Virus record (IMG/VR): IMGVR_UViG_2690316241_000020
DNA: 19,417 bases
Strand: one strand, 5' to 3'
Source of the DNA: a virus
Taxonomy: Duplodnaviria > Heunggongvirae > Uroviricota > Caudoviricetes
Made by a program: the position numbers and the translations under genes
In this document: positions 15,865 to 16,930 of the stretch, in pieces
How positions within the stretch are numbered: position 1 is the stretch's first letter
How the letters are laid out: each line of letters begins with the position of its first letter
The notes under the pieces: generated by a model
The model's input: the letters and a program-made list of their open reading frames with translations, nothing else
The model's database searches: none
Told to the model about the DNA's origin: nothing

Positions 15865-15909
15865 ATGACTGAAATCACGCCAGTACAGTAAACGCGCTGG
15901 TGGTTGTGA

Positions 15910-16360
15910 ATACCGGTCTTTCAGCTTGCTGGCTTTTTCGACAAGAGTTATTGGTGTGTCACGTTAACCGGAAAAAGGAAAGTTTGAGAAACGCGATCTG
16001 GCACAGGCGGTTATTAATGCTGCCTACCTGGTGGCCTGTGCAGATGGTGAATGTGAGGCTTCCTAGAAAGCGAAGATCGAACAGGTACTGCGTAATCAGC
16101 CTGCGCTGTCCGCGTTTACGTCAGAAATTAATGCGATTAGCGCAACCATTATCGGTCAGCTGGATACGAACTTTAAAACTGGTCGTCGTGCGGCGTTACG
16201 TGAGATCGAGGATGTGAAACACGATACGCGTGAAGCGGAAGATGTGCTGGATGTGGCGGTGGCCATTGCGGAGGCAGACGGCGAAATTGAGCCGGAAGAG
16301 CGCAAGGTGCTGGAAGAGATTGCCGGTGTTCTGGGTCTTCGTCTGGAGAATCACCTGTGA
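15910..16360 (+). pseudogene. Decayed TerB-like (tellurite-resistance TerB family) gene
   Basis: Frame 2 from 15968 reads PEKGKFEKRDLAQAVINAAYLVACADGECEAS*KAKIEQVL...VAIAEADGEIEPEERKVLEEIAGVLGLRLENHL, with in-frame TAG at 16064-16066. The likely N-terminus (..AGFFDKS..) is in another frame, changing in the A-run at 15971-15983. No start codon. Confidence 0.55.
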
Positions 16361-16488
16361 CGGTAAAACTGCGCCTGGCTGTGGCTGCACTCCTGCTGTT
16401 TCTGGTGGTGATGGTGGATTTCACCAGCAGAATCATGTCGGTGCTGGCGGATGGGGTGCTGGTCTGCGGCATTGTGGTATTGCTGTAG
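16357..16488 (+). CDS. Candidate 43-aa hydrophobic small ORF downstream of the TerB-like remnant
   Basis: GTG at 16357 overlaps the TerB-frame stop (GTGA), with GGAG eight nt upstream; internal ATGs at 16411 and 16435. Encodes MTVKLRLAVAALLLFLVVMVDFTSRIMSVLADGVLVCGIVVLL. Expression uncertain because the upstream gene is degenerate. Confidence 0.3.
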   Translation: MTVKLRLAVAALLLFLVVMVDFTSRIMSVLADGVLVCGIVVLL

Positions 16489-16685
16489 CCGGTGATAAAA
16501 AGAAACAGCCTGCATAATGCTTGATTTTTTTATTTGCTGTTTATTAAAAATACTACTGCATGGTGAATCCCCCTGTGCGGAGGGGCAATCAGCAAGTAGG
16601 TATATGTGATAATCGCGGATTCAGGTGCTGATACTGAATTCACCGGGAGGCACCCGGCACCATGCAAGAAAAAGAATGTGCATGC

Positions 16686-16716
16686 AAAAATGCCCCTCTC
16701 CGGAGGGGCATTTTTT
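16686..16716 (+). terminator. Strong intrinsic terminator, potentially bidirectional
   Basis: 8-bp G/C-rich stem TGCCCCTC / GAGGGGCA with TCCG loop, then TTTTTT; an A-run (16686-16690) precedes it. Confidence 0.7.
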
Positions 16717-16721
16717 ATGGG

Positions 16722-16747
16722 TAAAAAATGCCCGAATGGGTTCGGGC
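16722..16747 (-). terminator. Minus-strand-oriented intrinsic terminator
   Basis: Stem GCCCGAA / TTCGGGC with 4-nt loop. The flanking A-run at 16723-16728 becomes a U-tract only on the minus strand. Confidence 0.5.
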
Positions 16748-16930
16748 AATAGCATGAGATACTGATATTGTTGTGTTGTTATCGTGTGGATTTTAACCAG
16801 GGTTTATCAGGCTGCGCAACTGCGTGGCCTTCTTCATTTCTTGGGCTGTAGTCCCCGTGTGTCATTCAGGCTTCCGGACTACAGCCCACTCCATATCTGA
16901 TTTAATACACTATCCCGGCCGGGAGGAATA

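Follow-up and report, generated by a model that had tools for sequence, protein, structure and literature searches.

What occupies the late cargo slot of an E. coli lambdoid prophage that carries no toxin there, and does any protein gene in it still work? The question is raised by positions 15865-16930 of a 19,417-nucleotide (nt) stretch of Caudoviricetes DNA (IMG/VR virus record IMGVR_UViG_2690316241_000020, the whole of which is here called the window), located between a tR'-like terminator and a nanS-p type gene. A sequence-only reading had placed in this slot a decayed gene of the TerB family followed by a hydrophobic micro-open reading frame (ORF). Our analysis gives a probability of about 0.9 to the slot holding what remains of an accessory ('moron') operon, tciA-tciB, the lambdoid counterpart of tciA/tciB of phage P1, disabled in three steps. 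The features on which this reading is built, all on the + strand, are the following.

15866..15978, +: conserved post-tR' leader, not tciA sequence; in undeleted relatives it reaches the start of an ORF of 65 amino acids (aa)
15970..15982, +: deletion junction GGAAAAAGGAAAG, with parental microhomology AAAAAG, as placed by a four-way alignment with left and right parents
15980..16360, +: tciA remnant, a TerB family pseudogene in frame +2, codons 18-143 plus stop (TGA 16358-16360)
16064..16066, +: in-frame amber codon in tciA, Glu46 (GAG) to TAG when compared with intact alleles
16357..16488, +: tciB (DUF3927), 43 hydrophobic codons; its GTG start overlaps the tciA TGA (GTGA)

The tciA remnant is a member of the TerB family by descent and a non-working gene. 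It matched the Pfam TerB profile PF05099 with 42.6 bits (cut-off 24.4, E 8.8e-11) along profile positions 2-109 of 118, and its intact homologue matched PHROG 632 with 233.5 bits and the solved TerB structure PDB 2JXU with an E value of 9e-8. Intact TciA comprises 143 aa in Enterobacteria phage PPyecE_EH1910, and the remnant aligns with it codon for codon. In this phage the pair is annotated as 'TciA/TerB-like protein' (143 aa) and a 55-aa hypothetical protein; in phage JLK-2012 the genes are named tciA and tciB. The profile match and the intact phage allele uphold the decaying TerB-family gene of the sequence-only reading, which was also correct in the missing start codon and in the TAG at a conserved Glu. 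The start codon and the first 17 codons are deleted, and no ATG, GTG or TTG was identified from the in-frame TAA at 15965-15967 to codon 18. Two acidic ADGExxxxE motifs are taken as defining the TerB family; in the window the second is intact (ADGEIEPEE) and the first reads ADGECEAS-stop, the Glu lost at 16064-16066 being the closing residue of this first motif in the TciA sequence. With no ribosome-binding site, no start codon and an internal stop, the remnant makes no tciA protein.

The second gene, tciB, belongs to the DUF3927 family (Pfam PF13064, 45.6 bits, cut-off 25, profile positions 2-41 of 53) and to PHROG 1470, 'TciB-like' (E 1.6e-21, positions 1-43 of 54). Its coupling to the TerB stop, already noticed from the letters alone, takes the form of the GTGA overlap, and a GGAG is located at 16345-16348, 8 nt before the GTG. 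Two elements had been overlooked: an amber codon within tciB itself, and two small RNA (sRNA) genes of Rfam families filling 16532-16784, which are described below. The amber of tciB is a TGG to TAG change (Trp44) at 16486-16488, and it leaves 43 aa where intact relatives have 54-55. In the full-length form the second hydrophobic helix is followed by a C-terminal tail of basic character; the window copy is without the conserved tail WPVIKRNSLHNA.

The feature is already known, since public annotation or Rfam already covers both sRNAs, the genes with their families and the pseudogene status, and the novelty implied by the sequence-only reading has to be withdrawn. On two close matches (one identical, one 99.5%) the Prokaryotic Genome Annotation Pipeline (PGAP) labels the first gene 'tellurite resistance TerB family protein', flagged as a pseudogene for its internal stop, and the second DUF3927 family protein, WP_001344632.1, and phage records name tciA and tciB.

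The missing 5' end of tciA had been read differently, as a change of frame in the A-run at 15971-15983, and this part of the sequence-only reading did not stand. In a frameshifted gene the TerB frame would continue upstream of 15971 in another frame and the gene would be full-length, with a slip in the A-run. Some likeness is found there: the frame 1 peptide upstream (...LAGFFDKS...) loosely resembles the TciA N-terminus (MFGIFKKK), and both were placed together by MAFFT. This likeness is coincidental. Frame 1 has no start codon and is preceded by a TGA, and homology to tciA sets in sharply with codon 18, at about 15979-15980. The 113 nt upstream are leader sequence, found elsewhere 1.5-2.7 kb from tciA and entering a different ORF, and this refutes the frameshift, which we hold to be very improbable.

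The origin of the two halves was identified by comparison with undeleted relatives. In the four-way alignment the window follows the left parent and then, from within GGAAAAAGGAAAG, the right one; AAAAAG is present there in both parents. A 210-nt query (15866-16075) gave two sets of matches in E. coli, one along query positions 1-116 where no feature is annotated and the other along positions 114-210 in TerB genes. Of 5426 complete E. coli genomes, 478 gave a single match covering at least 80% of the query, which is possible only for a junction-bearing copy. The leader shares 92-99% identity with sequence located 1.5-2.7 kb upstream of tciA in undeleted prophages (55 of 86 loci). It is followed by the 65-aa ORF and then by a methyltransferase gene in loci L004 and L009; in E. 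coli EC-1639 the left part of the query is followed by the 65-aa ORF, a DNA methyltransferase, tRNA-Ile and tRNA-Arg genes and a DUF3927 gene. In the IMG/VR locus L009 the PR'/tR' block (99%) and the leader (97%) sit 2583 bp before the onset of tciA homology, and about 2583 bp are absent from the window relative to this locus. Besides the first 50 nt of tciA, the lost interval comprises the 65-aa ORF, an N6_N4 methyltransferase, a ParE-family toxin and a helix-turn-helix (HTH) protein, the genes being identified by their Pfam domains (N6_N4_Mtase, ParE_toxin and HTH_3). As judged from these comparisons, the A-rich run is the breakpoint of a deletion of about 2.6 kb and not a homopolymer frameshift, because the sequence upstream of it is a conserved leader unrelated to tciA; with the run read as a breakpoint, resequencing it would change nothing. 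The cargo missing from the window is visible in L003 (428-2643) and L009 (476-2693); it includes genes for an N6/N4 DNA methyltransferase and for a ParE-family toxin, the latter with an HTH gene behind it.

The lesions are shared by many prophages. The segment 15865-16930 is 100% identical in eight complete E. coli genomes, with RM14723 and 14EC001 among the strains carrying this exact allele, and an exact-pattern scan of IMG/VR identified the tciA TAG in 83 contigs and GAG in 38, counts that are not allele frequencies given that the exact pattern misses many intact alleles and that sampling is clonal. The 5' contexts of the TAG alleles and the state of the adjacent tciB are as follows.

TAG alleles with the deletion junction: 45 contigs
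TAG alleles of full length: 34 contigs (30 in the A7/TTG-start frame, 4 with ATG in frame)
TAG alleles truncated by the contig's 5' end: 3 contigs
TAG alleles unclassed: 1 contig
tciB next to tciA TAG: 75 readable, 55 standard (all 55 aa), 20 altered (16 of them 43 aa)
tciB next to tciA GAG: 36 readable, 35 standard (54-55 aa), 1 altered

An error of sequencing or assembly, with the gene intact in the organism, could appeal only to the general error-proneness of homopolymers. Next to no chance is left to it by the same sequence recurring in eight independent complete genomes, by the junction in 478 genomes and by a TAG distributed over 83 contigs in several 5' contexts; moreover, two of the three lesions are base substitutions and not changes of homopolymer length.

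The nearest intact allele (L079) differs from the window at 10 of 509 nt across the remaining tciA and tciB, with seven synonymous changes, one missense change and the two amber codons. Such closeness indicates that, on the sequence, the inactivation is recent. Of the 45 junction alleles, 22 have a tciB of 55 aa and 13 one of 43 aa, and among readable copies its length is altered in 27% of the TAG alleles against 3% of the GAG alleles. This variation beside a dead tciA suggests relaxed constraint. By parsimony, the simplest order of the lesions would be the TAG of tciA, then the 5' deletion and then the amber of tciB.

A variable run is also present near the start of full-length tciA alleles. 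At codons 7-9 many of them, in L005 (2454-2500) and among the IMG/VR loci L088-L207, have A7 instead of A6 (30 with TAG, 12 with GAG), and in these the gene body is in the frame of a TTG located one base after the ATG, with the N-terminus MVFLVKK... in place of MFGIFKK... For E. coli IAL7255, whose TAG allele is full-length, the A7 run was considered as a second frameshift and rejected; the shifted frame begins with the TTG, PGAP flags the internal stop only, and 12 GAG alleles have the same frame. The A7 frame is better treated as an alternative N-terminus.

On the reading of a decayed tciA-tciB operon, the intact pair is a gene for a TerB-fold protein coupled through GTGA to a gene for a small membrane protein of two helices. 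In intact relatives Q, PR' and tR' are followed by the leader, the 65-aa ORF and a DNA methyltransferase gene, next by either tRNA genes or a ParE/HTH pair, and then by tciA, tciB, STnc100, in some cases AgvB, nanS-p and the lysis genes. In a first step a G to T change would have turned Glu46 of tciA into TAG. In a second step illegitimate recombination at short A-rich AAAAAG sequences would have deleted about 2.6 kb, joining the post-tR' leader to codon 18 of tciA, so that the start codon and its ribosome-binding site were lost along with the promoter-proximal cargo. In the third step a G to A change would have turned Trp44 of tciB into TAG. The intact TciAB pair probably has a membrane-associated role in stress or exclusion similar to that of ter determinants, as suggested by the TerB fold and the membrane partner.

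The locus might still work as protein in three ways: by read-through or suppression of the amber, as a 48-aa C-terminal fragment of TerB started at GTG 16214, or through the 43-aa TciB alone as a late small membrane protein. In its favor, tciB retains GGAG, 8 nt and GTG as well as both hydrophobic helices, an ORF of 43-62 aa was identified in 75 of 75 readable TAG alleles, and PHROGs contains a 48-aa family, phrog_3920, equal to TciA residues 96-143. Taken together we consider this quite unlikely. Read-through of the TAG cannot rescue a gene with neither start codon nor ribosome-binding site, and GTG 16214 has no properly spaced Shine-Dalgarno sequence, phrog_3920 being simplest to explain as the output of gene callers on broken alleles. 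For tciB, the difference between TAG and GAG alleles suggests relaxed constraint, and the window copy is without the conserved tail. The 48-residue family corresponds to the ORF called from GTG 16214 (16214-16360) in TAG alleles, and is more likely to be an artefact of annotating the broken gene than a real protein family.

It is also conceivable, and in our view unlikely, that tciB was kept after the death of tciA as a small membrane protein of Q-driven late transcription, even in its 43-aa form, acting for example on lysis timing or exclusion. In a weaker variant the loss of tciA would have been favored in prophages of STEC (Shiga toxin-producing E. coli); if true, this would account for the TAG allele being so common.

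The borders of the slot are those of Shiga toxin (Stx) phages, Q and PR'/tR' forming the left flank and nanS-p with a holin the right flank. The elements surrounding and following the tciA-tciB remnant are listed here.

15766..15793, +: candidate late promoter PR', TTGATT, 16-nt spacer, TGgTAAATT, directly 3' of the Q stop (sequence inspection)
15841..15865, +: tR'-like intrinsic terminator, a 7-bp GC-rich stem (hairpin 15841-15858) followed by T7 (terminator scan)
16532..16722, +: STnc100-family sRNA gene (PasD/EcOnc27 relatives), Rfam RF02076, 146.2 bits, gathering score 47, model positions 1-206
16723..16784, -: AgvB anti-GcvB sRNA gene, Rfam RF02702, 96.5 bits, gathering score 56, identical to the consensus at 62 of 62 positions
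16785..16930, no strand: spacer with a candidate AgvB promoter and the nanS-p 5' leader, a block with 99% identity across many loci
16931..18781, +: nanS-p type sialate O-acetylesterase of 616 aa, the right border of the slot, with Pfam DUF1737, SASA and DUF6645

The Q antiterminator was identified by profile search as a protein of 273 aa (Pfam PF03589) with its stop codon at 15758-15760. The candidate PR' agrees with the consensus hexamers at 8 of 12 positions, under the threshold of the promoter scan, and is presumably PR' from its position after a PF03589 Q, where this promoter is expected. The block 15761-15865 shares 94-99% identity with other prophages having the same Q. The short transcript from PR' to tR' (15788-15865) would correspond in position to the StxS-type sRNA of Stx phages; in the Rfam scan this interval gave only a match at chance level (suhB, 20.5 bits).

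No sigma-70-like promoter on the + strand was identified by the promoter scan between tR' and nanS-p, which makes Q-dependent read-through the only evident source of transcription for the slot. The tciA remnant is located about 115 nt downstream of tR' since the upstream region was deleted. The 43-aa TciB peptide could still be made from its own GGAG and GTG after induction, when the Q-modified polymerase would pass tR'. Regarding the different cargo under Q-dependent late control proposed by the sequence-only reading, the position equivalent to stx is sound and the read-through by Q is a matter of inference.

The two sRNA genes fill most of the distance between tciB and the spacer. STnc100 starts 43 nt after the tciB stop and ends in a terminator hairpin at 16686-16715. 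AgvB carries CACAACA, the mimic of the GcvB R1 target, a motif defined in PMC4104026, and its terminator is located at 16748-16729; a TAAAAT at 16795-16790 on the - strand, found by sequence inspection, is presumably its promoter. The two genes are convergent, and their back-to-back terminators have GCCC...GGGCATTTTTT arms in common (I2 and I4 among the inverted repeats). Compared with their Rfam families, both are full-length matches and ordinary extra copies of multi-copy prophage sRNAs. STnc100 as a family is associated with Hfq, and the GcvB targeted by AgvB is a core sRNA. Other copies have been characterized. In O157:H7 Sakai AgvB is an anti-GcvB sponge that raises DppA translation and aids growth of O157:H7 in bovine rectal mucus (PMC4104026). 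Copies of STnc100 are transcribed in EDL933, one of them detected by northern blot (PMC5331693); copies also overlap the Hfq-bound sRNA EcOnc27 (PMC12711010), and one is located 75 nt downstream of stx2 in Stx2 phages (PMC12370729). STnc100 is related to the PasD sRNAs, and PasA and PasC loci have been reported near RusA and TerB genes (bioRxiv 10.64898/2026.05.13.724894). With the evidence on expression and Hfq binding coming from these other copies, the sRNA genes beside the dead protein genes are probably the functional content of the slot and its remaining contribution to the host.

The right border, nanS-p, is labelled by PGAP as 'SASA family carbohydrate esterase', and a class II holin is annotated downstream of it on identical DNA. 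Its 5' leader contains a perfect inverted repeat of 13 bp (16842-16854 and 16876-16888) with a loop of 21 nt, and a weaker pairing (72%) joins 16860-16877 with the region of the nanS-p Shine-Dalgarno sequence and start (16919-16936). As far as the sequence goes, these pairings could be a structure of translational control. Between nanS-p and the holin gene a strong terminator-like hairpin with 11 pairs and a T-run was identified (19147-19173, +), which matched no family in the Rfam scan. PasA/PasC-type sRNAs have been reported beside the holin/lysozyme operon, that is, in the same position as this hairpin (bioRxiv 10.64898/2026.05.13.724894). Elsewhere in the window Rfam identified DicF (4403-4454, -, 75.8 bits) and sok (12735-12909, +, 112.6 bits), the latter beside a toxin gene that is annotated as hokD on identical DNA. 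The sok, DicF, DUF968, RusA and Q genes together look like the backbone of a Qin-like lambdoid prophage.

Several points weigh against the decay of a tciA-tciB operon in three steps. The passage of a late transcript through the slot and the translation of tciB are steps that we infer. The literature searched on the function of tciA, tciB or DUF3927 is limited to mentions at the level of annotation and to a screen of non-essentiality in P1. One contig (L056) pairs the 43-aa tciB with an intact tciA, and the amber of tciB may have been moved by recombination or may have arisen twice. Finally, the counts from IMG/VR and RefSeq are dominated by heavily sampled STEC clones, and the events in them are not independent.

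What the analysis corrects in the record is the nature of the A-rich run, a deletion junction where a homopolymer frameshift had been noted. The locus also illustrates cleanly how, in lambdoid prophages other than Stx phages, a cargo operon decays step by step in the slot equivalent to that of stx.

Among known systems, the closest are the tciA/tciB pairs of JLK-2012 and PPyecE_EH1910, which comprise the same genes in the same position before STnc100, AgvB and nanS-p, with 89-98% nucleotide identity and the same GTGA overlap of the tciA stop and the tciB start. There both genes are intact, with 143 aa for TciA and 55 aa for TciB, whereas the window has lost codons 1-17 and carries stops at Glu46 of tciA and Trp44 of tciB. 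TciA and TciB are widespread in phages, being identified in 131 phage records. A role in anti-phage defence was considered and received no support, the PADLOC match being sub-threshold (14.8 bits).

More distant is phage P1, whose TciA shares 41-52% protein identity with prophage TciA and whose TciB belongs to the same PHROG 1470/DUF3927 family as tciB of the window. P1 is a phage-plasmid that, unlike the window, has a third gene, tciC, and its own annotated promoters. The genes tciA, tciB and tciC of P1 were non-essential in a CRISPR interference (CRISPRi) screen (PMC10695390), which fits accessory status. In P1, dmt (a DNA methyltransferase) and tRNA genes are located near tciABC, a linkage of accessory genes present in this way in two unrelated phage types. 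TerB of the Klebsiella ter tellurite-resistance determinant (2JXU, PF05099) belongs to the same domain family and has the paired ADGExxxxE motifs of TciA. Unlike it, tciA does not belong to a terZABCDE cluster; its partner is a 55-aa membrane protein, and in the window it is a pseudogene.

The stxAB slot of Stx phages is the same slot. It follows Q, PR' and tR' (and the tRNA genes if present) and directly precedes the block of STnc100, an AgvB-like gene and nanS-p. In BP-4795 about 100 nt separate the end of stx1A and stx1B from the block homologous to 16556-16930, with nanS-p (annotated as yjhS) next, and in E. coli IAL7255 the genes tRNA-Ile, tRNA-Arg and tRNA-Arg are located directly upstream of tciA-tciB; on this the sequence-only reading, which had equated the slot with the cargo position of stxAB, was correct. 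It was correct too in finding neither stx nor tRNA genes in the slot, with stx absent and no tRNA gene identified by ARAGORN anywhere in the window. The tRNA genes, of the ileZ/argN/argO type, are present in the relatives L004 and L005 and absent in L009, and they are variable and not defining for the slot. The proteins of stxAB and tciAB are unrelated, and the window, with no toxin, has in the place of stxAB the remnant of tciA-tciB.

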